Assembly (NCBI GenBank): GCA_010093605.1
Contig: MU004202.1
Location: 569,560 to 607,964, forward strand
Length of the DNA: 38,405 nt
Reading direction: 5' to 3'
DNA from: Lophium mytilinum
Taxonomy: Eukaryota
The notes below the pieces were generated by a model that had not been told where the DNA came from, made no database searches, and saw nothing but the letters and a program-made list of their open reading frames with translations. The translations under genes and the position numbers were made by a program. Positions 4,865-38,405 of the stretch are shown in pieces (position 1 is the first letter of the stretch; each line of letters opens with the position of its first letter).

Positions 4865-5962
4865 ACTAGATTTGAGGTCCGCGTGTCCGGGAAATCCGTG
4901 ACTTGTGACCACTGTCTTTTCGCCGCTCTACATTTCCCTCGACCTTCCCCACAGTCTTCTGCCACTCATACAGTGACACGCCATAAGTCTGGGCACACTG
5001 GTTCACCGGTGCTTGGGGTGCCCCCAAGGATGCAGAGAAACCAAAGGAGATGCCGAGTTTCAAGCAGTGCAGATTAGACTGCTCCTTAGCTCACTAGGCA
5101 CTGACTAACTGGGCTACCCCTCTCAATGGCGTCCAGAGAGCAAGATTGGAGCCGAGCAGTGATAATATTTGTGTGCCCAGACTTTTAGCCTAGCATTATA
5201 TAGGCTGACGAGGGCATTGTAGTGGCTATCCAACGGTGCAGACCAGCGAGAGACATCTCACTGCTACGAGGGCTTGATGCTGTTCTCCATCCCCAGCCCT
5301 ACCACTAACCCACCAGGGGCATCTTTCTATGGCCAGCTCCATCATGACCACGTATAGAGCACCCTTCCCATAATCTGATAGTAGCGAGTACCGTCGCCAA
5401 CTACAAGGGCGTCATCCCTCCATTGGAATCCCTCAACAAGGTGTTTGTTCACCCCACTGGAGCCAACTCCCCCAACTGCCCATTCAAGTCCATTGTCGGT
5501 CGTATTTTCCTGCTCCATTACAATTCTCTCAAAGGCCTTTGAACATGATGGGCATTCAGCTCCGATTTTGACTCGCAAGCTCCATGAAGCGGAAGCAGTA
5601 CTATTTTTGACGCTCTCGCCCACTCGTCCTCCTTGGCTGAGAATCATAGGGCAGCAGCGCGAGGTTCTTATACCCAAGGGGAGCGAGATTTGCGTATCAC
5701 GTGTAAAATCACATGCAACTTTAAGTAGCCAAAATGGCGGTGTGCAAGTGGTACTTAGAGCACTGTGAGTGTTACCTATATAGTTGATACGTTGTTAAGC
5801 ATTACGAAAGGAAAAGAAGGAAAACCGAACAAAATCAGCCCGCAGACCAGGTTAATTAGCAGAATTCTCCACAGATCCCGAGAGGCACCACATGAACCTA
5901 TAATACAGCGTAAGCATCTGCGCGTTAGTCGTATATGATCATCGAGTGGTCAAGCAAGAGCT

Positions 5963-8426
5963 TCACACGATTCTGCTCCGCTTCGCCACCTCATCATTGA
6001 ACTTTTTCTCCGCCATAAACTCGACAGACCCGTTGGAACGCTGTGATTCAAAGTCTAGCTCATGAATGTCTCCATAAAACGATGGAGCGCGTCTTTTAGT
6101 ACCTCGAATGGGTGTCTCTGGAATGGAGTCTGGAATTGCGGCGTCTGGAGGAGTTTCTGGGATCGAATCCGGTATCTGAGCGTTCGGGGGACTCACTGAA
6201 TAAGAGTCGAAGTCGTAATTTTGAATTTGCCTACCGTAGTCGAGATCGGTGTCGTCTAAGTCGACATAGGTGTATGCTTCCTCGGAGTCTGGCACACTCG
6301 CCTGAGTGCCAGCGGAGGCGGCTTCCATTGGAGCAATGTTGAGCTGGCTCATGGATGCAAAGACCGAAGGATGTGATGATAGTCGAGCGGAGACTGACGA
6401 CCCCTGATGCTCCATCTCGTGCTCTTCGGTGATTGTTGGCAATGGAGTGTTAGCACGCCTACCTTGTGAGATGGTCTGTGAGTTGGGCGACGACTGGTCG
6501 CTGCAATCAGAAGGCGCAGCAAAGAATTTGGAGATGACCGAGCTGGGTAGAAATGTCTTCGGTAGTCCGTTGTCCCCGAGATGCGACGTAATCTCCGGAA
6601 CAAGCCGCTCCACCATCTTAAATACTTTCCGTGGTGGCTGCCAGTCCCGAATCGTGTTTTCGTACAACGCGTCGAATGCGGCAGCGTGGTGTTCGTTTGT
6701 GAACCATGGATGTGCCAATGCTTGAGTAGCGGTCATTCGTCGGTCTTCGTGGAGGACGAGAAGCTTTCGGATGAAATCCTTTGGCCGGTGGCCGACATGC
6801 TTCCAGACTTCGCCAGAGTCCAGAATGCTGAGATTGCACTCTGACAAGAGCTGTACAATTCCTGTACGGTTATCGTTCTCGCTACCTGCAAATACATTCT
6901 GTCCAGTAAGTAGAACTGCTACAATGCAGCCTACTGACCACATGTCCACGCTAGCAGAATAGCCTTGGTCGCGAGGAATGGTCCTGTTCTGTTGGAATAT
7001 CTCGCTGTGCTTTCGTCAATGATGATTCCACTGGTACGAAGCTGAATCTTACGGTGCAGCATATTCTATAGTTCCCATCTTCGAAAACATCCGACCTTTC
7101 CACTTTCCTGGGCCTTTCCCTCCCACTGGAAGAGGGATAATCCGTGCGCCGCCGAAATCAGTTACGACGACCCGAGCGGATTCATCGAGCGAAGTCATCA
7201 GGATGTTGTCGGGTTTCAGATCGCGGTGTACGATGCCACGGTCATGAAGATATTCGACTGCTTTCAGAATCTGGCGAGTAATTACGGCCGTCTCCGGGTC
7301 TGACAGACAGCCTTTGGCGCCGATGTATGAATGCAGGTCGCCTCCGGGAATGAGCTCCTGGAAGATGTATCTATAGTCCGGTCAGCGCCGAAAAGCTTAG
7401 CGGTTGGATATACTGACAAGCTATTCATACTCCAAAAGACCTTCTCGATTGTAATAATGTTCGGCTACAAGAAATTAGCTATGTTTAGAGGATCTGATAG
7501 ATTGATCCCACGTGGCGCAAGTCCTTCACAATGTCAAATTCTCTCAAAGCTTTCTTGACTTTCGCGAACCACTCTAGAGGAATGGAGCCTTCATTGGCGC
7601 ACGAATCCTGAGCTTTGGTAGAAGGTGGGGTTGGGCCGACGTTGTCAGACGGTTTAATGGCATCGCATAGGTTTGATGGATTGAGGACGCCGCTGATGTT
7701 TACCATCTTGCAAGCTAGCTGACGATTTGTCTTCCGATGTACCGCAACAAACACCATGCCACCACCGCCGTGACCAAGAGTCCGGTTGGTGATGGTGTAG
7801 CGTGAGCTGAAAAGCTATATAGTGTTAACAATCAAATGCTGTGACCGAAGTGAGTACCCCACACCTGTGTTTCACGCTCTTGGACGTCCTCTAGAATGTA
7901 GTACTCCTCGTCAGCTCGAGTACGATAGATCAGCGATACATTAGCAGATATCCGAAGCTCGTCGTCAGCATCGAGAAGATAGGCGCCCGATTTGCGTGTC
8001 AGACGGATCTTGCTGGAAGTAGTAGATGGGACCTTTTGACAGGCGGTGTAGCTTGGCGTTAGGATTGTACCGTTAGTCGACATGTCCGTTGCATACACCA
8101 GTGGGCCAATGGCCTCGCTTTCATCCCAGATGAGACAATGAATGCGAAGATGCCTGTTGGAGATGCTGGGATCTGCCCAATGCTGACGACTGGGAATGTC
8201 AACGCAGCTCAATTCTGTGAGATAATGGAGCTCTCACCAATGCGCATGGCTTCGACCGAGATAGAAGTCATCATTCTTGCTAATGAGGATGCGACTCTGA
8301 TGCACTGCAAAGGGATCAGCTCTACCTAGTTCCGATCATCAGATTGAGGATGTTACCTTGGCCATTGTTCATCCTCTCCCATACCTCCAGATAAGCCACC
8401 GCCTCCTCCACTTCCTTACTTGTCAT
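5963..8426 (-). CDS. MEK1: FHA-domain Ser/Thr kinase (CAMK group), most like meiosis-specific Mek1; multi-exon
   Basis: ATG 8426 ([15 protein letters not shown]). FHA motifs [11 protein letters not shown] and DMSTNGT. Kinase motifs across exons: [56 protein letters not shown]. Several GT-AG introns. Long acidic C-terminal tail. Confidence 0.75.
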
Positions 8427-8815
8427 CCTCCCTCAATTGCCCCAGAAGACTGCGCTTTTTACAGATAATAACGAGGAAGTTGGGATGAGAGCGAGTGCGG
8501 AGGGCTGCCGTCATGTTGGTGTTTAGTGGGGCAGATCCGCTAGTGCCAAATACAGCTAGCCCATCTCATAAGCGACAGCTCCGCACAAGAGCTCATAGAT
8601 CGCGCTGCTCGACCTCTTTCCTCCATCACCTTCTCACTCATCTCGAAGCGACGTAAGTGCAATCCATCCCGCTCCCAGTCTCTCACCAGGTCTTCCAATT
8701 GCTCTTGTTACCTTGCAGGAGTACTCAATTGCAAGCGGCAGACCTGCCCTCACTTGGGGAACCCCGCCCGTGAGCGCAAATTCGCTGACCTCGCAAAGTC
8801 ACCTAGTTATCGAAG

Positions 8816-8950
8816 ATGAGAGCCAAGTGGAGAAAGAAGAGAGTTCGACGCCTCAAGCGAAAGAGGAGAAAGACGCGTGCTCGTTCGTAAGTCATCACTC
8901 TGCTCCAGAACCTCACTTTTGCAGCTGGCTAATAGCCCTCCAGCAAGTAA
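8816..8950 (+). CDS. RPL41: Ribosomal protein L41 (eL41), 25 aa, exons 8816-8886 and 8944-8950
   Basis: The spliced product is MRAKWRKKRVRRLKRKRRKTRARSK*, essentially the canonical eL41 sequence. Intron 8887-8943 is GTAAGT...GCTAAT...CAG. 5'UTR intron signals: donor GTAAGT 8653, branch GCTGAC 8784, acceptor TAG 8806. Confidence 0.97.
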
Positions 8951-9813
8951 ACGCCTCGCCCCTCAACCTCAGCAACCCCTCAGCCTCCCACACAACCATA
9001 ACGTCACGGCATTCTACAATCGAAATGCAATCAAATGCCGACACCTGATCACACCAACTTGTCTTTCATCACGTCACGCACGACATCCACTCGAGCTTTG
9101 GCAGCATGCGAAACGGTGGAGCGAACCAGGAGTCATCGATGCGGCAACGCAATGAGCTATGAATGCACGGAAGGAGGAGTTTGGGGAAGCTTGTCAATCA
9201 CTCATGTTGGGACGCATTGCAAGGGTTTCTTGAAAATGGCGGATGTGCTCTAAAACCGGCGAGCTTTGTGCGAACCTTTGAGTAGCTTCTTGCTAATGAT
9301 CTGATGTGGATATGCTATACTTCAATGAATTGCATGTTTCCACATACTGATTGCCATGCTACTGTATGATCGTGAATACTGTCTTCCAATGCTGCATGAC
9401 GAGTTTCCACAGGCTACGTATGTCTGATCGGAGACCTCCGAGGTGCCGCAGCAACATGCTTCCTCGAGAGATGGTATCAGACTAGACATACCTCCCTTCA
9501 AGTACACTCCAGGATTGAATCGTCTTTTCATACATTCTCGCTCAGTCAGGTCAGTAGTGTCAGCATCAAAAAGGTTTTTGCCGTTCTCTCTCTTCCATCA
9601 ACATTTAAAAATTCTTCTTCGCCTTACCTAGGCATCGCAATATATCGCTTGCAGCTCCATTACCTCCTGGCACCCTTCCGATTTTCAATCCGTCTCGAAT
9701 ACCCAATCCTACGCCCAACCATAAAAGCCGTAACTCCCTCCGGGGCGTCTTGCACGCCAGCCTAGCTAGCTACCTTCATCGCGCAACCTGCGGCCCCTTT
9801 TTGACGTCGATGC

Positions 9814-10614
9814 TTGCATGAAAAGGGTACAAACACCCAGCCTTTTGAACACCCGCCTGCCGCTGTTTATGGCGCCTCCATACATGTTTTCACACATAAA
9901 ACAGATCGAAAACCCTTAACTGTAGGCTCTGGAGAAAACTTATTGAGCAGTGGGAGACAGGTGCATACACGACCGCACGAGCGTGCCATCGTGTTCATGT
10001 CCAGCGTAGACGTGTAACGTGGAGATGTCACTCGTGTAGTGCTGGTTTCCCATCTTCGTGCTTCCCCGAAGTTCCAACCCTCTGACTTCGCCGCTGCTCA
10101 CGTGCCTAGCACATGACGCCCCAAATCTCTTTGCTTTCTCGGGTATAAAACCCCCCCTCGGCCTTCCTTGAGCTTCTTTCTTCATGGGTCTCGGGGTTTC
10201 GAGTCAAAGATGGAAATATTTCCTTACGATGGTGGGCAAAAAGTGCCGGAAGAGTGGGTCATGTCTGGTTCCAGTGAAAACTCTCCAACCGTAGTGTGTT
10301 CCATGGAGGTTGTGGATCAAACCGCTTATCTTTCCTGCACATGGGCGTGGGGTGGGATTCGGGGAGTCAATGAGAACGGGGGTAGCTGCGTGGAGCAGCC
10401 AAAAGCCCTACGGGATGAGAACCATGACTACTATTGGTGTAAAAGACATGGTCAGGAGTATGATGGAGGAGTGGTGGATGAAGTCCTTACAACAACCAAC
10501 AAGGCAGTGTTCAATGGGGAGATCGGATCGAATCTGGGCGGTCTTGTGGAATGGTGGGAAGGGGCAAGATTGGAGGTGATGATAGTTCTCAGCAACGGGA
10601 ATTTTAAATGGTAG
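9814..10614 (+). pseudogene. Possible decayed gene of unknown family
   Basis: ORFs 9814-10017 and 10168-10614 share a frame, separated by TAA 10015 and TGA 10114. The 3' part looks protein-like, but no family is recognised. Confidence 0.25.
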
Positions 10615-11450: not shown

Positions 11451-13011
11451 CTAGACGTCTTCCTTCCCAGCCTTCTTACTTTCCACGGAGACTTCGTGCC
11501 TTACAGTCACCGCGTTCCCCTTTGGTCCTTCTGAAGTAGACGGCGATCGCTCCGTCGACCACGCATGTGCGACGACGTTGGGCGAGCCAGAGACGAGCGT
11601 CATGTCGAGTTGAGGATTAGTCGTAGAGGTAGATTGCTCGGAGTCTCGCCACTTGCCGGCTGCCTTTGCTGTTTTCCAGGACTTAGGAAAGTAGAGGTTT
11701 GACGTGTCTTCGGTGTCGATGACGGAGACAGGGAGGATGTTGGGTCGGGCTGATGAATACTGAAATAGGCGCTTGAGACCAAACGGCTTCTTCGTCGCTG
11801 CATTTGCCGGGGCAGGGTGCTTGAGCATCGACTCGGTCGTGGAAGAATGGCCGATCGAGGCACTCTGAGAACCATCGGTAACGGTCGTAGCCTGAGACGA
11901 GGAAGCAAGCGAGCCCTTGGACTTGAAGACCGTCTTCGTTTTCTCTGAAACAGAGAACCAGCTAGTCTTCATCGATACCGTGCTCGACTCTAATGCCTGC
12001 ACCACTTTGCCGAGGCCCAACTTGACCATCCACCCTTTATATAACTGGTATGCTTCTGCGCCGGTGCCGAGGAGGAGGAAGATGAGGAATCCATTTGCGA
12101 TGCGGATCCAAACTTCGTAGCGGACCTTACCTTCGCTAGGAACGTAGAGCATCATGTCGCCTGTATGCTCATGCACGGTATCCCAATCGTAGGGATCGTT
12201 TTCGAAGCGGAGGGCACTAGCGTTATCGTAAAGGATGTAGAAGACCAGCGGCAAAGTGCCTATGCAAATGATGAAGGCAACAGCAAAGAGGCGGAGGAAT
12301 CGAGAGTTGGTCTGGCCGCGGGCTTGAACGAGATGGCTGAACTGGGAGCGATATTTATAGAGGCGGTAGACGAGGATGACTGTACGGGTCAGCGTTTGCA
12401 AATGAGGGGAGAGATCAAGATAGAGGTAGCTTACCGGAGTAGTAGGCAGCAAAACTGTCGATGATCGGCGGCCAGATCCAGACGAAGACAACGGATGCCC
12501 AGCTGGTGTGGAAGCCGGGACCGCAGCCTTGGATGCCGTAGATGAAGTAGCGGATGGTTTGCACAAAGTAGTACATGACCATGGACAGCAAAGGGAAGAC
12601 CCAGCACCAGAGAAGGTCGAAGATGAGTTCCCGGATCCGGTGGGCGCGTGACGGCGCGACGACGATGTTCTTGGTGTCTAGGACTTTTGCCAGCCTTCGG
12701 AGAATGCATGCGAGGCCGCCCGGAAGAGCAACCCAGGCTGCGATGACGAGCCGAGACTCAATGTCGCAGAGCACATTGCCATCCCACCATTCTGCAAGAT
12801 TGTCGCGTGGCCAGATGATCGCGTTGGTGACGTTGATGAGGTTCATGATTATGATCCAGAGGACGAGGCTCGTGGCGGCCAGGTTGCGTTGGTGGCAATG
12901 CCAAATGAGCATTGGGATGTCGAGGACGATGGTGATAGATGAGAGGACAGGTATGACCACCGCAATGGGGTAATAGGGATATTTGATCCGTTCCAAGATC
13001 GAGGAGGCCAT
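11451..13011 (-). CDS. STE3: Ste3-type (a-factor-like) pheromone receptor GPCR
   Basis: ATG 13011; intron 12380-12434 (GTAAGC...GCTGAC...CAG). Ste3 hallmarks NAIIWPRDNLAEWWDGNVLCDIESRL, YYFVQTIRYFIYGIQGC and SRFLRLF; multiple TM helices and a Ser/Thr-rich tail. Confidence 0.92.
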
Positions 13012-14172
13012 CCCGGACGCTGATAAGGAGAAGCCGAGCAAGGTTTTTAGAGCTTTTTCGATCGTCGAAGGCAGGGCTGAGGTGTAGGGCTTGGAGCTTG
13101 AAGTAGATGGCGTCTGATGATCCAATAGCCAATTGGGCAGAGCCTCTGAGCCGACCTGGGTGTTTCTGCCGGTGGCTTGGAGAGAAATTGAGAATGAAGG
13201 AGCAATCGAAGACGAACAAAGATGGAGGACGAGGAATGTGGAAGGAGAAGACGAAGTACGATATAAGACAGAGTAGATAGTAGAAGCGCGTGTGGCCGCT
13301 CAATAGCTCAATAAGGCCAGCTGCCTCAATAAGGTCAATAAGATCATGCAGCAAACTCTCGCGAGAAAGGTCTAAACGGCGGAAAGTTGGATACTTCAAG
13401 CAACGAACATAGTAGTTGCGCTCGAGAATCAAGTCAGAGTAATTGCACTTATTGCATCTCGTCGGACGCCTCAGAATGCCGTGGATTGTGCCCTTTGTAC
13501 ATGGTGGCCATGGTGATGCACTGAGACCGACCCAGATCTCGCTTGACGCTTTTGGGTCTGAATAAGAAGCGGGAAATGTACGCGACTTTTGAATAACAGA
13601 AAGCTGCAGGAGGCACTAGAGACACCTCCTGAGTCTTAATGAGCCTTCAAGACAGTCATGGCTGAACTCAAAGCTCTGGGAAAAGGAGGTTCTTGGGGAG
13701 TGCGCTGGGGACATGTGTGGATGAGTGTTAGTCATTGGGGGTACTTTCTATGGGGATGTCAACTGCTTCGGCTGTGCCATATGTGAGCCAAGAAGTCCTC
13801 TGCTCTCAGATGAAGAAAGCTGCCGCCATCATGGAGGCGATGGTAATTCGGCGTCGTGATGTTTGGTGTTGAGTTCTACAATTGTCCGAAAGGGGAAAGG
13901 TCGACCCGTGACGTAGGTCTTGGCGTTCTGCAGCGGAACTGGAGATGGAGTGTTGATTGGAGCGTAACAAGACCGAATCAACCAACACCTTCTCCGCGGC
14001 CAGCATGGCCTTTGCTTCTTCAGCCGGCGACGACGCTATCGGCACCGCGACTGTTACTCGGGTTCTATACCGCAAGGGCATTGCCCGCGCTGCTGTTCGG
14101 AGGACGACGCGAACACACGACCTCGGCACCGTCATCACTTCTTGAAGCTCCACACTTCCTTCTAGGCAAACT

Positions 14173-30600: not shown

Positions 30601-32434
30601 AGACCCGAACCACGGAACGGACGAGATCGCTTCATCAGCGCAAATCATCACGCAAAAGCGGCCAGTTGTTAAAGGTGTCAGTGCAAACGATGTTTCAGAT
30701 CTGACTCGTAAGACTGGAGATGTTGCCGTTTATAAATACTATTTCAAGACGACCAGCCGATTCGGAATTGCATGCCTTCTCGCCGCCATAGCGTCCTACT
30801 GCTTCTCCTTCTTCTTTCCACAGCTGTGGCTCGTGTGGTGGACAAAGGCGAACGGACATGAGAATGGGAAGTACATCAGTGTCTACGTGTTATTGGCGGT
30901 GATAGCTTGGATATCTAGAGCATCTATGCTGGCGTTTCTACTGCTCTGGGTTTCCCCGATATCATCGATCAAACTGCACCAGATCCTCCTTCGGACGGCG
31001 ACCAGGGCTCCACACTCATTCTTCACGAAAACGGACACTGGAATCACGTTGAATCGATTTAGTCAGGATATTGGCCTGATCGACCGCGTACTCCCGCTAT
31101 CAGCTGCGCGCGTAGCCCTCTCCTTCGTGATCATCGCCCAGGCAGCGCTGATCGCTCAAGGATCCAGTTATATGGGGATCACCCTTCCTTTCATATGTCT
31201 TGCCACTTACCTCCTCCAAAAAGTCTATCTTCTGACATCAAGGCAACTTCGTTTCCTCGACTTGGAAGCCCGAAGCCCTGTATACACCCACTTTCTTGAA
31301 TGTCTAGAAGGGCTATCCACTATCAGGGCCTTTGGCTGGGCAAATGCCGCACAAGAGATAATGATGAAACGTCTCGACATCTCTCAGCGGCCGTATTACC
31401 TTATGTTTTGTCTCCAGCGATGGCTAGCCTTAATCCTAGATCTCATGATTGCCGTAATTGGTGTGATCGTAATCGCACTGGCCGTAAGAGTTCCTGGCAC
31501 ATCTAGCGGCGCTGCTATTGGAATCGCACTCAACAACGTCCTTGGATTCAACCAGTCACTCCGCCTGTTAATCGACAGCTGGACGCAATTCGAGACTTCC
31601 CTCGGCGCCATCGCACGTGTCAAGAATTTCGAAGCTGAAGTGCTCCCCGAAGACAGACCTGAGGAGATAGCAGAAGTACCAGCATCATGGCCAGAGTCTG
31701 GTGCTATAGATTTCGAAAACGTCTCCGCTTCTTACGGCCCCGCTGCACCCGCTCTTAACAGCATCTCCCTTTCTATCACGCCCGGCCAAAAGATCGGTAT
31801 CTGTGGCCGCACTGGCTCCGGCAAATCATCCCTCCTCCTAACCCTCTTCCGCCTTCTCGACCTTTCCTCAGGCAGCATCAGCATCGACGGCGTGGACATC
31901 TCCACGATCCCCCGCGAAACGCTCCGGACTCGTCTAACCTGCATCCCGCAAGACCCCTTCATCCTCCCCACCACCGTTCGTCGGAACCTCGACCCCGCCT
32001 CCGCGTCATCAAAATCCAGTCCAATCCCCGACAACGACCTCATCGCTGCTCTCGAGCGCGTTCATCTTTGGCAGCCCATCCTCACGCGTGGCGGCCTGGA
32101 TGCACAGATGAAAACGACTCCGCTGTCAGCAGGGCAGCAGCAGCTATTCTGCCTCGCACGGGCAATGCTACGAAGGACGAGGATCCTGGTTCTCGATGAG
32201 GCAACGAGTAATGTCGACCGAGAGATGGATCAGCTGGTGCAGGGGGTATTGAGGGAGGAGTTTCGGGAGAGAGGGTGTACGGTTATCATGGTGGCGCATC
32301 GATTGGAGACGATTCGTGATGCGGATGTGGTGGTGAGAATGGGGGAGGGGAAGATATTGGATGTTGGAACCCCGGAGAAGATATTGGGGGAGGCCGGGAA
32401 GATTGGAGGAGGTAAGGGATCCCTGGGAGAATGA
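27675..32434 (+). CDS. Full-length ABCC/MRP-type ABC transporter (TMD0-TMD1-NBD1-TMD2-NBD2); ~7 exons
   Basis: N-terminal FGP...FDFTLLFEQSIL; Walker A GPVGSGKST and GRTGSGKSS; signatures LSGGQKQR and LSAGQQQL; Walker B LLDD and VLDEATS. About six GT-AG introns between 27918 and 29531. Confidence 0.95.
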
Positions 32435-32657
32435 CGGGTCTGCGCTGCTCCAGGCTCTGAGATATAGCTCCCGTCGGTTTCCCCTCGCAAGACTAGGCGT
32501 ACCTATACTAGTATCAAGCCATCGCTAGCAACTTGAGGCGCAATGATAAACCTTTACATCTTGCTCTGGATTTTTTGTTTAGTTCGAGAGGCTCTCAAGG
32601 CTACCTTCACATCGTACCTAGCCAGCTCATATGATAGCATTCCTTTAACGACTTACC

Positions 32658-33620
32658 TCAAGCTTGCCGCCCCTTCGGCTCACCCCCCGCGATAGCATCA
32701 ATCAACGTCTCCACCGCCGCCAACCCACTCCTAACCTGACACTCCACCGTATCTCCACCAACATGCGGCATCATAACCAAATTCTCATGCTCCAAAAACT
32801 CGCGATACACCTCCAACGTCGGCGGCTCCACCTGACACGCATCCAACCCCACCCCCCAAAACCTCTTCGCCCTCAACGCCTCCAACAACGCCTTCTCATC
32901 CACAATCCCGCCCCTCGCCGCATTAATCAAAATCGCCCCCTCCTTCATCCTCCCCATCTCCTCCCGCCCAATCAAACCCCTCGTCGCCGCCGTCAACGGC
33001 ACATGCACCGTTACCACATCCGCCACCTCCAACAACTCCTCCAGAGTCCCCACCCGCTCATGCTCGATCCCCGGCCACCCGTCCGCAGGGAAATACGGAT
33101 CATACGCCACGACCCGCGCCTCCATCGCGCCGCGCCACTTCTTCGCGACCTCTCCACCGATATTCCCCATCCCCACCACCCCCACCGTTGTCCGAAACAG
33201 GCTTTTCGAGAACCACTCCGCCCGCAGCAGCTTCTCTCCCCTGCGAATCGCGCGGTCCATCTCGCACACGCGCCGCGCGACGGCGAGCGCGAGGGTCAGG
33301 GAGAGCTCGGCGACGGCTTCGGCGTTGACGGCGGGGGTGTTGTAGACGCGGACGCCGTGGCGCTTGGCGGCGGCGAGGTCGATGGCGTCGACGCCGACGC
33401 CTTGCTTGACGACGTATTTGAGGTTTGGGGCGGCGGCGAAGTCGGCTTCTGTGAGGGTGGTGCGGGCGCGGATGAGGATGGCGACGGCTTTTTGGGGCCA
33501 GTCGATGTGGGCGGGGTCGGTGAAGAGGATGGGGGACATGGAGGGGTGGGATTGGAGGAGGGCGAGGGCGGCTTCGTTGTAGTGGCCGAGGACGTAGACG
33601 GGGGTGGGGGGTTGGGACAT
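32658..33620 (-). CDS. NAD-dependent D-isomer-specific 2-hydroxyacid dehydrogenase (320 aa, intronless)
   Basis: GVGVDAID, GVVGMGNIG Rossmann motif with following YD (NAD-type Asp), HVPLT..T, INAARG (Arg), VEP (Glu), PHVGG (His). No ACT domain. Confidence 0.93.
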   Translation of the reverse strand: MSQPPTPVYVLGHYNEAALALLQSHPSMSPILFTDPAHIDWPQKAVAILIRARTTLTEADFAAAPNLKYVVKQGVGVDAIDLAAAKRHGVRVYNTPAVNAEAVAELSLTLALAVARRVCEMDRAIRRGEKLLRAEWFSKSLFRTTVGVVGMGNIGGEVAKKWRGAMEARVVAYDPYFPADGWPGIEHERVGTLEELLEVADVVTVHVPLTAATRGLIGREEMGRMKEGAILINAARGGIVDEKALLEALRAKRFWGVGLDACQVEPPTLEVYREFLEHENLVMMPHVGGDTVECQVRSGLAAVETLIDAIAGGEPKGRQA

Positions 33621-34289
33621 GGTGGGTGTGTTGATTATAGAGAGGTTGGGAGTTGAGGTTTAGGAATTGGGGTTTGAGGTCTGAGGCTTGAGGTTTGAGG
33701 TTTGAGGCTTAAAAAATGCGGTATGAAATGAGTATATTTCAGGGTACTATATGTAGTAATATGTCATGCGAGCTGCGGGAATGATTCATCGAGGTGTGGG
33801 GAATAGACCCTGGAGGTTGATAAGGCTTATACCGGACTAGGGCTTGTATGAAGACAAGCTTTGCTGGCGTCATTTGGGAGCGGATGAGGAATCTTGTGCT
33901 ACGTTAATTTGATAGGGGCAAGATGCTCGATACGTGTGTTGTTGATGCAAGACGGGCGGGGATTAAACTCCGCTACGCTGCCGACCTTGCCGAGTGGCCT
34001 CAGTCTAACTTTAATGTAACCGTGAGCCTGGTGGGTCCTCTGCAACACCAAGGTAAACGTCTATAAAGGTATTTGAAGCCCGTGCTGTCTTTCTTATTGC
34101 ATGTTCGTAGTCTCTGCCTCCCTTATAACTTGAGTCTCCTTTTTCTTTCAATCCTCAACTTCTCGTCCATCTCCGTCAACCGCTGACTCACCACCATCTT
34201 TCTCTCTCCTGAAAATTTACACATATTCGATACCCGTCTTCAAGACTCTTCCCCCTATCCCAGCCTCATCCATCAACACCACCACCACC
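33621..34289. promoter_or_regulatory. Shared divergent promoter region (669 bp)
   Basis: Lies between two head-to-head ATGs. TATAAA at 34062-34067 is followed by a pyrimidine-rich tract leading to ATG 34290. Confidence 0.6.
33668..33709. repeat. Six degenerate 7-bp tandem units (TGAGGYT)
   Basis: TGGGGTT TGAGGTC TGAGGCT TGAGGTT TGAGGTT TGAGGCT, just upstream of the dehydrogenase ATG. Confidence 0.8.
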
Positions 34290-35177
34290 ATGCCCCCCGC
34301 AACAGCCCAAATCGCCGCCCTGCGCGCCGCCCTCGCCAACACCTCACGCCCCGCCATCGCCATGGCCGCCCACAACCCCCTGACCGCCAAACTCGCCCAC
34401 GAAGCCGGCTTCTCCGCCATCTGGGTCTCGGGCTTCGAGCTCTCTGCCTCCTATGCCGTCCCCGACGCCTCCATCCTCCCCGTATCCACCCACCTCGAAA
34501 CCACCCGCGCCATGGGCGAAGTGCAGCCCCTCCCCCTCATCGCCGACCTCGACACCGGCTACGGCAACGCCGTCAACCTAACCTACGTCGTGCGCCAGTA
34601 CGAAGCCGCCGGCGCGGCCGCCATCGTCATCGAAGACAACGTCTTCCCCAAGGAGAGCAGCCTGCGCGCCGGGCCGGCGGGCGCGAAGCGCAAGCTGGCG
34701 GGCATCGCCGAGTTTCAGGGGAAGATTGCGGCCGCGAAGGCGGCGAGTAGCGTGTTGGTGATTGCGCGGACCGAGGCGTTGATTGCGGGGTATGGGGAGG
34801 CGGAGGCGTTGGAGCGGGCGGCGGCGTGGGCGGAGGCGGGGGCGGATGCGGTGTTGATCCATAGTAAGGCGAAGACGCCGGATGAGGTAGTGAGTTTCTG
34901 TAGGAAGTGGGATGGGAGGGTGCCTGTTGTGATTATCCCGACGAATTACCCGCAGTTGGGGTTTAAGGAGGCGGGGGAGTTGGGGAAGGTGGGGTTGGTG
35001 ATTTGCGGGAATCATACGGTGAGGACGGTGGTGGAGGCGGTGAGGAAGACGTATAAGAAGATACTGGAGGAGGGCGGGATTGAGGGAGTGGAGGGGGATA
35101 TTGCGAGTGTACAGGAGGTGTTTAAGTTGCAGGGGGATGGGGAGATGAGGGAAATTGAGAAGAAGTTTGTGAGGTAA
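34290..35177 (+). CDS. palA: Phosphonopyruvate hydrolase-like enzyme (PEP mutase/isocitrate lyase superfamily), 295 aa, intronless
   Basis: Blocks AMAAHNPL.AKLA..AGF, SGFELSASYAVPDA, STHLE..RA, IADLDTGYGNAVN...VV.QYEAAGA.AIV.ED..FPK..SLR, EFQGKIAAA, EALIAG.G, KTPDE, PT.YPQL, KVG.VI.GNH and LQGD..MR match, as I recall it, Variovorax PalA/PPH. It lacks the EDK-x5-NS motif of true PEP mutases. Confidence 0.82.
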   Translation: MPPATAQIAALRAALANTSRPAIAMAAHNPLTAKLAHEAGFSAIWVSGFELSASYAVPDASILPVSTHLETTRAMGEVQPLPLIADLDTGYGNAVNLTYVVRQYEAAGAAAIVIEDNVFPKESSLRAGPAGAKRKLAGIAEFQGKIAAAKAASSVLVIARTEALIAGYGEAEALERAAAWAEAGADAVLIHSKAKTPDEVVSFCRKWDGRVPVVIIPTNYPQLGFKEAGELGKVGLVICGNHTVRTVVEAVRKTYKKILEEGGIEGVEGDIASVQEVFKLQGDGEMREIEKKFVR

Positions 35178-35845
35178 GCTTGAGCGGTGTCTGATGAAGT
35201 CAACGCAACACGAAGAGATCCTAGGTATAGAGCTATGTTTGCTGCATTTTTGACATCTTGTCCATTTCAAGTCAACTATCGTTCCTCCACTCCAGACTTC
35301 AAAATTCAGGGCAGTGCCAGCACTGAATATGCCCGCAATTGTAACACTGCTCCCATGTGTACATGTCAGTTTTGCACCGATGGCATCTCCAAATCGCGCC
35401 GCGGGGAACTTGGTAAGTTGGTCGATACAGGCCTGGGTGGTCGTGTGTGCTTTTGTTCATTTTGATAGCTTGCTTAGGAGGTGATTTGCTAAAGGTTTTG
35501 AGACCTGGGAGAGGGAAACGAATTTACTGACCGTTGAAGTCCTATTAGAGGAGTTAGAAAGTATTTATACCCTACAGACAAGCCGCCAAGGTGGCTGTTG
35601 CTGGTCTGGCTGGTACAGTACATACGTTGTCGCCACGCCGCGTTCTGAGCTGGCCTTCTGCAAGGATGCTGTACTCTGCCAACTCATTCAGCAACGACCA
35701 AGAAAGCAACACATGTATTGGCGAGACCTAATCAAACAGTGATTAATCGAACAAATCTGACTATCACGTAGTGTACGTGAGGTACATAATTAAGCTGCTC
35801 GTGCCTTCCTACATATTTCCTAGCAGCAAGACTAATGGGTGAATT

Positions 35846-36038
35846 TACAGGGTATATATTTTGGGGAGGGATAAGCGCACACCCCCTAATTCCTCCACGC
35901 ACGCCCCCTAATTCCTCCACGCACACCCCCCTATCGTCTAATCGTTTTACCACCTTCTAATTAGCTTAGATTACTGCTCTGGAGCCTCTAAGTAGCTTAC
36001 TTAGCTTACGCGTAGTTTCTAAATGCCTACTCTATATG
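35846..36038 (+). mobile_element. Possible left end of a Tc1/mariner-like DNA transposon, truncated
   Basis: TA + CAGGGT start, 22-bp subterminal tandem repeats, TpA enrichment, and an ATG at 36023 cut off by the next repeat. Confidence 0.3.
35876..35931. repeat. 22-bp tandem repeat x2.5 (CGCACRCCCCCTAATTCCTCCA)
   Basis: Units at 35876-35897 and 35898-35919, partial unit at 35920-35931. Confidence 0.9.
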
Positions 36039-37226
36039 TATCACGTCGTTCCTCAGCATTCTCTTGGTAGTCATCGAGGTCAGGAGTCATCACGTGCACG
36101 GACGTCACGTGATCTCCGGGCCGAGGGTTCTTCCGGCGCCCGGGGTTCTGCCGGCGCGCACTCAACTACGTAGCAGGCTCGTGGCCGGAGCCTCTCTCCT
36201 CCACGCAACCTCGTTAATAGAAATACAACCCTTTTCTTAGCCATAAACCTAATACTAGGTTGCGTTATTCTTTAAAACCTAGAAATATAGAAATATAGAA
36301 ACCTTAATTTCTTTTTATATAGCTATACTACTATACGCGTATATATCTATATAGGTACTACTAGCTTTAAGATTTAGCTATATAATTACTTAATTACTAA
36401 TATTAAAACTAATATATTTTCTTTTCTTACTTACTTTAATACTTTCTTTTTCTTTTCTATACTTATATAAAGCCTAGGCCTTACTATAAATAACTAGGTA
36501 TAACTAACTATATTAATATACCTAGTAGATAACTTTATAACTCTAATATTCTATAAAGTAAGAGGGGGGTTAGTTACTAGAACCTTAATAAGATATAGAA
36601 TAATACTTAGAGTAATATCTTTAAGAAAGTAGATAAGAAAGTACTACTAATAGACCTTAACTACTTAGCTTTATATATAAAGAATTAATAAAACTATCTT
36701 ACTAAGTAGTATAAGCACGTTAGTAAACTACTAAATATAGCTATAGTAGAGGCTCTTAATATCTAGAACTTCTATACTATTAGTATAGACTCTTAGATTA
36801 TAGAAAGCCCTATTACTATTATATTATTTCTTAGTATTCTCTTAGTAGTTATTAAGGTTAGAGGTTATTATATATATAGATGTTATATAATCTCTAGGCT
36901 AAGAGTTCTTCTAGCGCCCGAGGTTCTACTAGCGCCCGGGGTTCTACTAGTATATACTTAACTATATAGTAAGCTTATAGCTAGAGCCTCTCTTTTCTCT
37001 ATATAACCTTATTAATAGAAATATAACCCTTTTCTTAGCTATAAACCTAATACTAGGTTGCATTATTTTTTAAAACCTAGATATATAGAAATATAAAAAC
37101 CTTAATTTCTTTTTATATAGCTATACTACTATACGCGCGCGTATCTATATAGGTACTACTACTAGCTTTAAGATTTAGCTATATAGTTACTTAATTACTA
37201 ACCTTAAAACTAATATATTTTCTTTT

Positions 37227-37264
<38 letters not shown>

Positions 37265-37642
37265 CTAAAACTCTCTTCTTATTTTCTATACCTATATAAA
37301 GCCTAGGCCTTACTATAAATAACTAGATATAACTAACTATATTAATACACCCGGTAGATAACTCTATAACTTTAATATTCTATAAGGTAAGAGGGGGGTT
37401 AGTTACTAGGACTTTAATAAGATATAAAATACTTAAGGCAATATCTTTAAGAAAGCGGATAAGAAAGTACTATAGATAGACCTTAACCGCTTAGTATTAT
37501 ATATAAAGAACTAATAGAACTATTTTACTAAGTAGTATAAGTATATTAGTAAGCTACTTAATATAGCTATATTAGAGGCGCTTAATATCTAGAACTTCTA
37601 TACTATTAGTATAGACTTCTAGAATATAAAAAGCCCTATTAT
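36039..37642. repeat. Head-to-tail ~780-830 bp direct repeat x2 (36039-36816; 36817-~37642), LTR-like
   Basis: The copies align throughout and differ mostly by C>T/G>A changes, e.g. tatcacgtcgttcctcagcattctcttggtag vs tattatattatttcttagtattctcttagtag. Both end in aagccctatta. Confidence 0.9.
37227..37262. repeat. (CTTA)9 microsatellite
   Basis: Nine units in copy 2; only two at the equivalent position (36426-36433) of copy 1. Confidence 0.95.
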
Positions 37643-38405
37643 CTTTAACCTTCTTCTAGACCTGCATAATATTAAGAACCTAACTATAAAGCTAGAAGAT
37701 ACTATATTCTAGAGCTTATTTAAGTTCTATTAATAGGTAAACTCTAAGCCGCTTAAAGCCTTTAAACTACTACGCGCTCTAGTTAAGAGTACTAACATCT
37801 ATATTAATAACTATAGCGCCGGCTTAGAGAAATAGAAGAATATATTTATAAACCTTTATAAGTAGTTTAATAATATAGATAAGATTATTATAGACCTAAA
37901 GATCTAGCTTAATAATTCTAAGCTTAATCTCTAGGCTATCTAGGCTTATATATATAAGCTCTAATAATAATAATAGTCTAAGCCTACTAAGATAACATCT
38001 AAAGGGCCCGTTTATTTTAATAATAATAAGCGGCGCAATAATAATATTAACTATTAGTAGATAAATAGCGGAACTAGAGGATAACTACTAGATAGGCCTA
38101 ATAACTATAGTTATAATAGCTATAATAGCTATATAGAGCCTAGCTATACTTCTTCTATACTAAATATAAACCTCTATAGTAGTAGTAACTAAGCCCGCCG
38201 CTCTACCTCTCTATATAATAACTAATTAGATAATTAATATTATAATAATAGCTACTATAATAGCTATACTCTACTATATACTTAGCTACTATTATTAATA
38301 TTCTACTAGCGTAACTACTACTAGCTAGACCTAGTTATATTTAATAGAGAGAATCTAGATATATATCTAATCTAGCGTAGTAAGGTTCTAGCTAAGATCC
38401 GCTAT

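Follow-up and report, generated by a model that had tools for sequence, protein, structure and literature searches.

A 38,405-nucleotide stretch of the Lophium mytilinum genome (contig MU004202.1 of assembly GCA_010093605.1, positions 569,560 to 607,964; hereafter the window) contains a homologue of the phosphonopyruvate hydrolase PalA on the plus strand and, head to head with it and 669 bp away (33621–34289), a D-2-hydroxyacid dehydrogenase gene on the minus strand. Both genes are transcribed and intronless, and their pairing recurs among diverged fungal lineages beyond what chance would give. We propose that the pair could be a two-gene catabolic module in which phosphonolactate is converted to phosphonopyruvate and then to pyruvate and inorganic phosphate (Pi), with the dehydrogenase replacing the aminotransferase PalB. 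This reading is drawn from sequence and gene context and is put forward tentatively, at a little under an even chance. The pair and its associated features are:

32658..33620, minus strand: D-2-hydroxyacid dehydrogenase gene, 320 aa, intronless (open reading frame, ORF; Pfam)
33621..34289, no strand: divergent intergenic region with the 5′ leaders of both genes (ORF coordinates; RNA contigs)
33653..33710, no strand: array of about 8 imperfect TTGAGGT heptamers within the 5′ leader of the dehydrogenase gene (Tandem Repeats Finder)
34058..35526, plus strand (taken from the ORF, the contig being unstranded): unspliced RNA-derived contig across the hydrolase ORF (run X1)
34290..35177, plus strand: phosphonopyruvate hydrolase (PalA) homologue gene, 295 aa, intronless (ORF; PF13714)

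In the predicted route, the dehydrogenase would oxidise 2-hydroxy-3-phosphonopropanoate (phosphonolactate, expected in the D-configuration) with NAD+ to give phosphonopyruvate, and the PalA-type hydrolase would then cleave the C–P bond irreversibly, yielding pyruvate and phosphate. Since the oxidation is thermodynamically unfavourable, the cleavage would draw it along, in the way that D-3-phosphoglycerate dehydrogenase (PGDH) is drawn by the enzyme after it in serine synthesis, and the dehydrogenase would stand in the place of PalB, the enzyme that feeds PalA in bacteria. The module would serve to scavenge phosphorus or carbon from environmental phosphonates. What the enzymes act on, in which direction the reaction runs, whether the two are coupled and what they do for the fungus are all predictions from the protein sequences and their setting.

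Identity and transcription of the two genes

The hydrolase matches the Pfam family PEP_mutase (PF13714, 8.8e-53), and its scores separate the members of this superfamily clearly: 333.5 bits against PDB 2dua, the Variovorax phosphonopyruvate hydrolase (PPH), 234.9 and 197 bits against two phosphoenolpyruvate (PEP) mutases in PDB, and at most 83 bits against lyases and decarboxylases. Among NCBIfam models it scores 359.4 on TIGR02321 (PalA) versus 244.2 on TIGR02320 (PEP mutase). Seven residues (D59, D86, E115, K121, S124, R160 and H191) are intact in the window protein and invariant across 23 aligned PalA-group sequences. The PEP mutase signature is EDKxxxxxNS, and the corresponding stretch in the window hydrolase reads EDNVFPKESS, with no Asn. 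At the position that we take to discriminate the two activities (presumably Thr118 in PPH and Asn122 in PEP mutase), Ser123 of the window protein ('FPKESSL') aligns to Thr118 of 2dua ('FPKDTSL') and to the Asn of 1m1b ('FPKTNSL'); all 23 sequences have Ser or Thr here, the window Ser being a conservative match to Thr and not an identity. PPH and PEP mutase are thought to be separated by one substitution (PMC3266647, in part). Because of its PalA scores, its intact residues and the missing Asn, we assign the protein by sequence to the PalA clade, as a divergent member, rather than to the PEP mutases. The earlier note on this DNA had named the two genes a 2-hydroxyacid dehydrogenase and a phosphonopyruvate hydrolase, and both names were right.

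These results bear directly on a biosynthetic reading, in which the pair would run in reverse, PEP being converted to phosphonopyruvate and the dehydrogenase then reducing this to phosphonolactate, as with PepM and VlpB. Such an arrangement has precedent, in that PepM paired with a reductase of the 2-Hacid_dh_C kind is recognised as an early branch point, and the role proposed in biosynthesis for VlpB, itself a 2-Hacid_dh_C enzyme, is to interconvert phosphonolactate and phosphonopyruvate (PMC8942020 and bioRxiv 10.64898/2026.01.15.699783, each in part). Here, though, the PEP mutase model falls 115 bits under the PalA model and under its own cut-off (244.2 versus 319.55), the stretch EDNVFPKESS lacks the Asn, the protein lies within the PalA group in the tree and far from the PepM outgroup, and there are no downstream tailoring genes in the window. 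We regard a biosynthetic role as very improbable.

The dehydrogenase matches 2-Hacid_dh_C (PF02826, 1.5e-48) and 2-Hacid_dh (PF00389, 2.4e-22). Its best NCBIfam match is the PGDH model TIGR01327 with 255.5 bits over model positions 40–304 of 525, below the equivalog cut-off of 454, and its best PDB matches are 1wwk, 1ygy and McyI (159 bits), that is, short and long PGDHs and McyI. It is 320 aa long and without ACT/ASB regulatory domains, such domains being C-terminal in PGDH of types I and II. The residues G150-M-G-N-I-G155, D174, R236, E265 and H286 are invariant in 16 close homologues and match PGDH structures; the GxGxxG motif and the acidic residue act in NAD binding, and the Arg, Glu and His in catalysis. 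Judged on these matches it is an NAD-type, D-isomer-specific 2-hydroxyacid dehydrogenase that is PGDH-like and not PGDH.

R51 and R133 of this protein align with R51 ('VRSAT') and R132 ('WKR') of the Mycobacterium tuberculosis PGDH, arginines that we take to be equivalent to those of human PHGDH. In the human enzyme Arg54, Ser55 and Arg135′ hold the distal carboxylate of D-malate (PMC8081924, in part). Since R51 and R133 are kept, the expected substrate is a 2-hydroxy acid that has another anionic group besides its carboxylate. A PGDH-like enzyme beside PalA is chemically reasonable, phosphonolactate being shorter than 3-phosphoglycerate by one atom, and the activity proposed for VlpB is a precedent for a 2-Hacid_dh_C enzyme working on this compound.

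The same arginines raise the alternative of a coupled enzyme pair with other substrates, for example D-malate to oxaloacetate to pyruvate and CO2, sulfolactate and sulfopyruvate, or a substituted phosphonolactate. Distal-anion arginines are common to the malate-acting McyI and the 3-phosphoglycerate enzymes (PMC11977255 and PMC8081924, each in part), an oxaloacetate decarboxylase in the superfamily (PDB 3b8i) matches the hydrolase with 82 bits, and the window PalA has diverged in a loop beside the active site. Set against these are the 333 bits to PalA compared with at most 83 to lyases and decarboxylases, and the intact residues shared with PalA. Sulfopyruvate is said to be an inhibitor of PalA and not a substrate, which counts against the sulfonate variant. 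Coupling on another pair seems improbable.

One public run (X1) holds contigs for this stretch, and these are RNA-derived since they have spliced joints in neighbouring genes (GT..AG in the ABC transporter gene, CT..AC in an upstream minus-strand gene). The contig across the hydrolase (1469 nt) has no joint, no gaps and no other letters, and spans the full ORF, extending 232 nt upstream of it and 349 nt downstream. The dehydrogenase ORF is covered in every depth bin with no joint listed, and a piece at 33496–33732 reaches into its 5′ leader, where RNA contigs extend up to 33732. The N-termini of both ORFs align with those of their homologues. The spliced contig of the ABCC-type transporter gene extends 713 bp past the stop codon (32434–33147) and over the 3′ half of the dehydrogenase gene, reflecting either overlapping 3′ ends or two transcripts merged by unstranded assembly. 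Two intronless genes across a 669-bp divergent gap had been described from the letters alone, and the ORF coordinates and joint-free contigs confirm this.

Linkage of the pair and its history

The closest relative with a species name, Mytilinidion resinicola, has a hydrolase 93% and a dehydrogenase 88% identical to those of the window, and there the pair has consecutive accessions (KAF2811589, KAF2811590). Homologues of PalA and the dehydrogenase lie on contigs of equal size in three more assemblies:

2,461 bp: P0006 and P0134
11,369 bp: P0021 and P0124 (two contigs each)
120,288 bp: P0085 and P0131

Placement on the same contig was here concluded from equal contig sizes and equal contig counts, compared by eye. 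Between the four linked lineages, PalA is 66–81% and the dehydrogenase 59–68% identical. The pairing exceeds chance, because the genes are adjacent in M. resinicola and apparently co-located in three further assemblies. A fourth pair on 2,330-bp contigs (P0069 and P0126) was dropped, as its two members do not share a source and P0069 falls with bacterial PalA in the tree.

The linked dehydrogenases are also related to one another. In a tree of 45 dehydrogenases, the window protein and the four other linked proteins fall in one clade of 15 rows (SH-aLRT 100), hereafter the orthogroup, which leaves out 28 further homologues from fungi and two from bacteria. Linked proteins fill four of its five sublineages, and the residues fixed within it include Y93, W136, F254, V257 and G258. 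More distant dehydrogenase homologues (41–58% identity) have no PalA nearby at any of 80 metagenome loci among the matches listed; at one of these (L107) a 30%-identical member of the hydrolase superfamily is located about 4.6 kb away.

Several observations weigh against the proposed module, and the first concern the extent of linkage. In 13 other PalA-bearing fungi (six Fusarium/Neocosmospora, Clonostachys, Phaeoacremonium, Melanomma, Lophiotrema, Coleophoma, Lecanicillium and Mollisia) none of the best 120 dehydrogenase homologues is on the PalA contig, an equal contig size, compared by eye, being the proxy for linkage. Conversely, six orthogroup dehydrogenases on contigs of 5–1,527 kb, including that of Capronia epimyces, have none of the best 120 PalA matches on a contig of the same size, so that a tie between the dehydrogenase and PalA does not hold everywhere; the contigs of four further orthogroup members are too short to judge. 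These absences are soft, because they cover the best 120 matches and because a profile search with fungal PalA sequences, which gave no new equal-size contig pairs among the matches listed, did not recover the M. resinicola PalA, so that divergent members can be missed.

Bacterial neighbourhoods add to these points. Among the 80 bacterial PalA loci compared (the best 80 of at least 570 relatives, by likeness to the fungal protein), a 2-hydroxyacid dehydrogenase adjoins PalA in just one, L062, from an Enterobacterales metagenome-assembled genome (MAG). This locus has a same-strand set of PalA, 2-Hacid_dh and GNAT acetyltransferase genes (7878–10481), the start of the last overlapping the stop of the dehydrogenase, and its PalA scores 495 bits on TIGR02321; as an operon it counts in favour of the pairing. 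Six further PalA-like loci (in five other genomes of a 401-genome sample) have no 2-hydroxyacid dehydrogenase within 1.5 kb. Likewise, four relatives of the L062 dehydrogenase in 400 same-class genomes have no PalA within 1.5 kb, and the arrangement was not refound. Because L062 is a single case that was not refound, the bacterial support is thin.

The window itself supplies the remaining points. Its hydrolase (359.4) does not reach the PalA equivalog cut-off of TIGR02321 (374.4), which is passed by all five other fungal-clade members scored (P0031 415.6, P0056 400.1, P0085 386, P0021 416.1 and P0006 409.4), with bacterial members at 404–553 bits. The shortfall goes with two changes found only in the window and M. 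resinicola proteins, EDK to EDN and a 3-residue insertion after 'FPKESSLRA' (window 34629–34682, protein residues 114–131), in what we take to be the loop closing over the active site; this lineage has long stem branches in both trees (PalA 0.46, dehydrogenase 0.38). The arginines kept in the dehydrogenase suit malate, 3-phosphoglycerate and sulfolactate as well as phosphonolactate. Finally, a motif scan of the 669-bp intergenic region gave no CACGTG site of the Pho4/NUC-1 type.

Another explanation is that PalA acts by itself, next to a dehydrogenase with no functional relation to it that works on an ordinary 2-hydroxy or 2-oxo acid, with phosphonopyruvate arising from phosphonoalanine via general aminotransferases, or with PalA removing toxic phosphonopyruvate. 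It would account for the 13 of 14 named PalA-bearing fungi that show no linked orthogroup dehydrogenase by the same-contig proxy, for Capronia epimyces, which has the dehydrogenase and no PalA among the best 120 listed, and for bacterial PalA genes being in many unrelated contexts, with PalB in only 4 of 80 loci. It fits poorly with co-location in four lineages whose dehydrogenases are 59–68% identical, including on a contig of 2,461 bp, and with the membership of every linked dehydrogenase in one orthogroup. As a general expectation, fungal gene order seldom persists over such divergence without selection, which would also count against it. On balance we think an unrelated neighbour unlikely, while according it appreciable weight.

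Linkage is thus recurrent and probably old, and it is not universal. The earlier note had made conservation of linkage in fungi one of the checks on its proposal, and the outcome is divided between four diverged lineages with the pair and 13 other PalA-bearing fungi without it by the same-contig proxy. Its proposal that a dehydrogenase has replaced the aminotransferase stands to the extent that the window has no PalB, linkage extends to four lineages and the distal-anion arginines are kept; the 13 unlinked fungi speak against it.

Several other arrangements were seen among the 80 bacterial loci. The classical transporter-PalB-PalA operon is present in four. In 12, all from alphaproteobacterial MAGs (L002, L004, L005, L007, L011, L013, L014, L016, L020, L023, L039 and L040), PalA has directly upstream, on its own strand, a gene for a bifunctional class II aldolase/short-chain dehydrogenase of 686 aa (NF006192, 1021.8 bits; e.g. 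L013, with the aldolase/dehydrogenase at 5932–7992 and PalA at 8001–8864), and an aldo/keto reductase gene lies about 2.8 kb downstream of PalA. This may be another dehydrogenase-fed phosphonopyruvate route or may be synteny of one lineage. About nine loci of Acetobacteraceae type (L019, L021, L030, L031, L046, L047, L048, L051 and L053) have PalA with PrpD/MmgE-family, TctC, amidohydrolase and CN-hydrolase genes and without PalB, and the remaining PalA loci are partly amid housekeeping genes.

The fungal PalA proteins, including those of the three linked assemblies, group together and apart from a bacterial clade (SH-aLRT 99), and the fungal clade covers at least three ascomycete classes. A quick PepM-rooted tree placed the root inside the fungal rows, with bacteria nested in fungi. 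This topology was rejected as a search artefact because a tree constrained to have the 26 fungal-group rows as one clade, a group defined after the first tree was seen, is 12.7 log-likelihood units better (p-AU 0.825 in the approximately unbiased test). A single split between fungal and bacterial PalA would imply one ancient inter-domain transfer, which is the simplest reading of these trees. The pair may represent an ancestral eukaryotic phosphonolactate mineralisation, the dehydrogenase orthogroup having co-evolved with a fungal PalA clade that split once from the sampled bacterial PalA; we hold this broader view as somewhat doubtful.

Surroundings of the pair in the window

The 669-bp intergenic region is presumably the shared promoter of both genes. 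Its G+C content (GC) is 0.47 versus 0.64 in each of the two ORFs, and the motif scan gave, as bare matches, one CGG-N10-CCG at 33957 (33957–33972), a form typical of sites for zinc-cluster regulators, and one TATAAA at 34062. The heptamer array falls inside the RNA contig at 33496–33732. GC at third codon positions is 0.82 and 0.83 in the two genes versus 0.54–0.77 in six other window ORFs, and this common high value, which speaks for the pairing, could reflect shared history or high expression.

About 800 bp past the hydrolase stop codon an AT-rich block begins (36001–38405; GC 0.30), with indices of the repeat-induced point mutation (RIP) type of 1.83 (TpA/ApT) and 0.16 ((CpA+TpG)/(ApC+GpT)). 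These values and the low GC bear out the earlier placement of the pair at the edge of a repeat block. Just before this block there is a 22-bp tandem repeat with 2.5 copies (35876–35930), probably a dispersed repeat, in the place of a short piece of RNA contig that is loose at either end (35863 and 35943).

Other genes in the window code for an ankyrin protein, a DUF7730 protein, a kinase fragment, a STE3 pheromone receptor, an alpha/beta hydrolase, a zinc-knuckle protein, an FAD monooxygenase and the ABCC-type transporter, which is on the plus strand at about 27.9–32.4 kb and convergent with the dehydrogenase gene. The STE3-type receptor gene (11451–13125) is in two ORFs, split probably by an intron. 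A tblastn search of the 38-kb window with a bacterial PalB (from L059) gave nothing better than E = 1, none of the 24 window ORFs of at least 120 aa has an aminotransferase domain, and there is no bacterial pal-type regulator or importer in the window.

Relation to known systems and meaning

One close counterpart is the PalB-PalA phosphonoalanine pathway known from Variovorax sp. Pal2 and from Burkholderia cepacia Pal6 (PMC10574752 and PMC3266647, each in part). It has the same PalA family, which belongs to the superfamily of PEP mutase and isocitrate lyase, the same conversion of phosphonopyruvate to pyruvate and Pi, and the same logic of an upstream enzyme supplying phosphonopyruvate to the hydrolase. 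In contrast, the host here is a eukaryote, no aminotransferase, LysR regulator or ABC importer is nearby, and the genes are divergent and not in an operon. With a dehydrogenase in the feeder position, the predicted substrate would be phosphonolactate and not phosphonoalanine.

Two further systems are alike in part. By description, PepM with VlpB (valinophos-type; PMC8942020, in part) likewise combines a PGDH-like 2-Hacid_dh_C enzyme with a PEP-mutase-family enzyme, there in a reductive and biosynthetic sense and with a true PEP mutase, whereas the partner here is of the hydrolase clade, which would imply oxidation and breakdown. In PhnW-PhnY-PhnA, which takes 2-aminoethylphosphonate through phosphonoacetaldehyde and phosphonoacetate to acetate and Pi (PMC3266647, in part), an NAD+ dehydrogenase likewise makes the substrate of a C–P hydrolase, although that system is bacterial, has other substrates and is built from unrelated families, namely aldehyde dehydrogenase and a hydrolase of the alkaline-phosphatase type.

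The window dehydrogenase has in common with SerA/PHGDH and McyI the Arg/Glu/His triad and the two distal-anion arginines, and in PGDH an unfavourable oxidation is likewise pulled by the next enzyme. It differs from PGDH in its score (255.5 against a cut-off of 454), in its length of 320 aa without regulatory domains, and in its own set of fixed residues.

A literature search with synonyms and enzyme names found no route of phosphonolactate catabolism, and only biosynthetic mentions of the compound, as an intermediate (PMC8942020, in part). Fungal PalA is present in papers only as an annotation (PMC7749757, in part), and PalA is treated as a rare, mainly proteobacterial and aminotransferase-fed enzyme (PMC10574752 and PMC3266647, each in part).

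Organic phosphorus includes a sizeable pool of phosphonates, whose breakdown is known almost wholly from work on bacteria. Even should the pathway proposed here fail, the locus shows that these fungal genes are misleadingly labelled when 'PEP mutase' and 'PGDH' are assigned automatically. A fungal PalA clade, paired in several lineages with a dehydrogenase of its own, would extend hydrolytic C–P cleavage to eukaryotes. If the pathway is true, phosphonolactate would gain a degradative fate, and the pair would be the first catabolic route for this compound in any organism and the first defined C–P hydrolase pathway in fungi.

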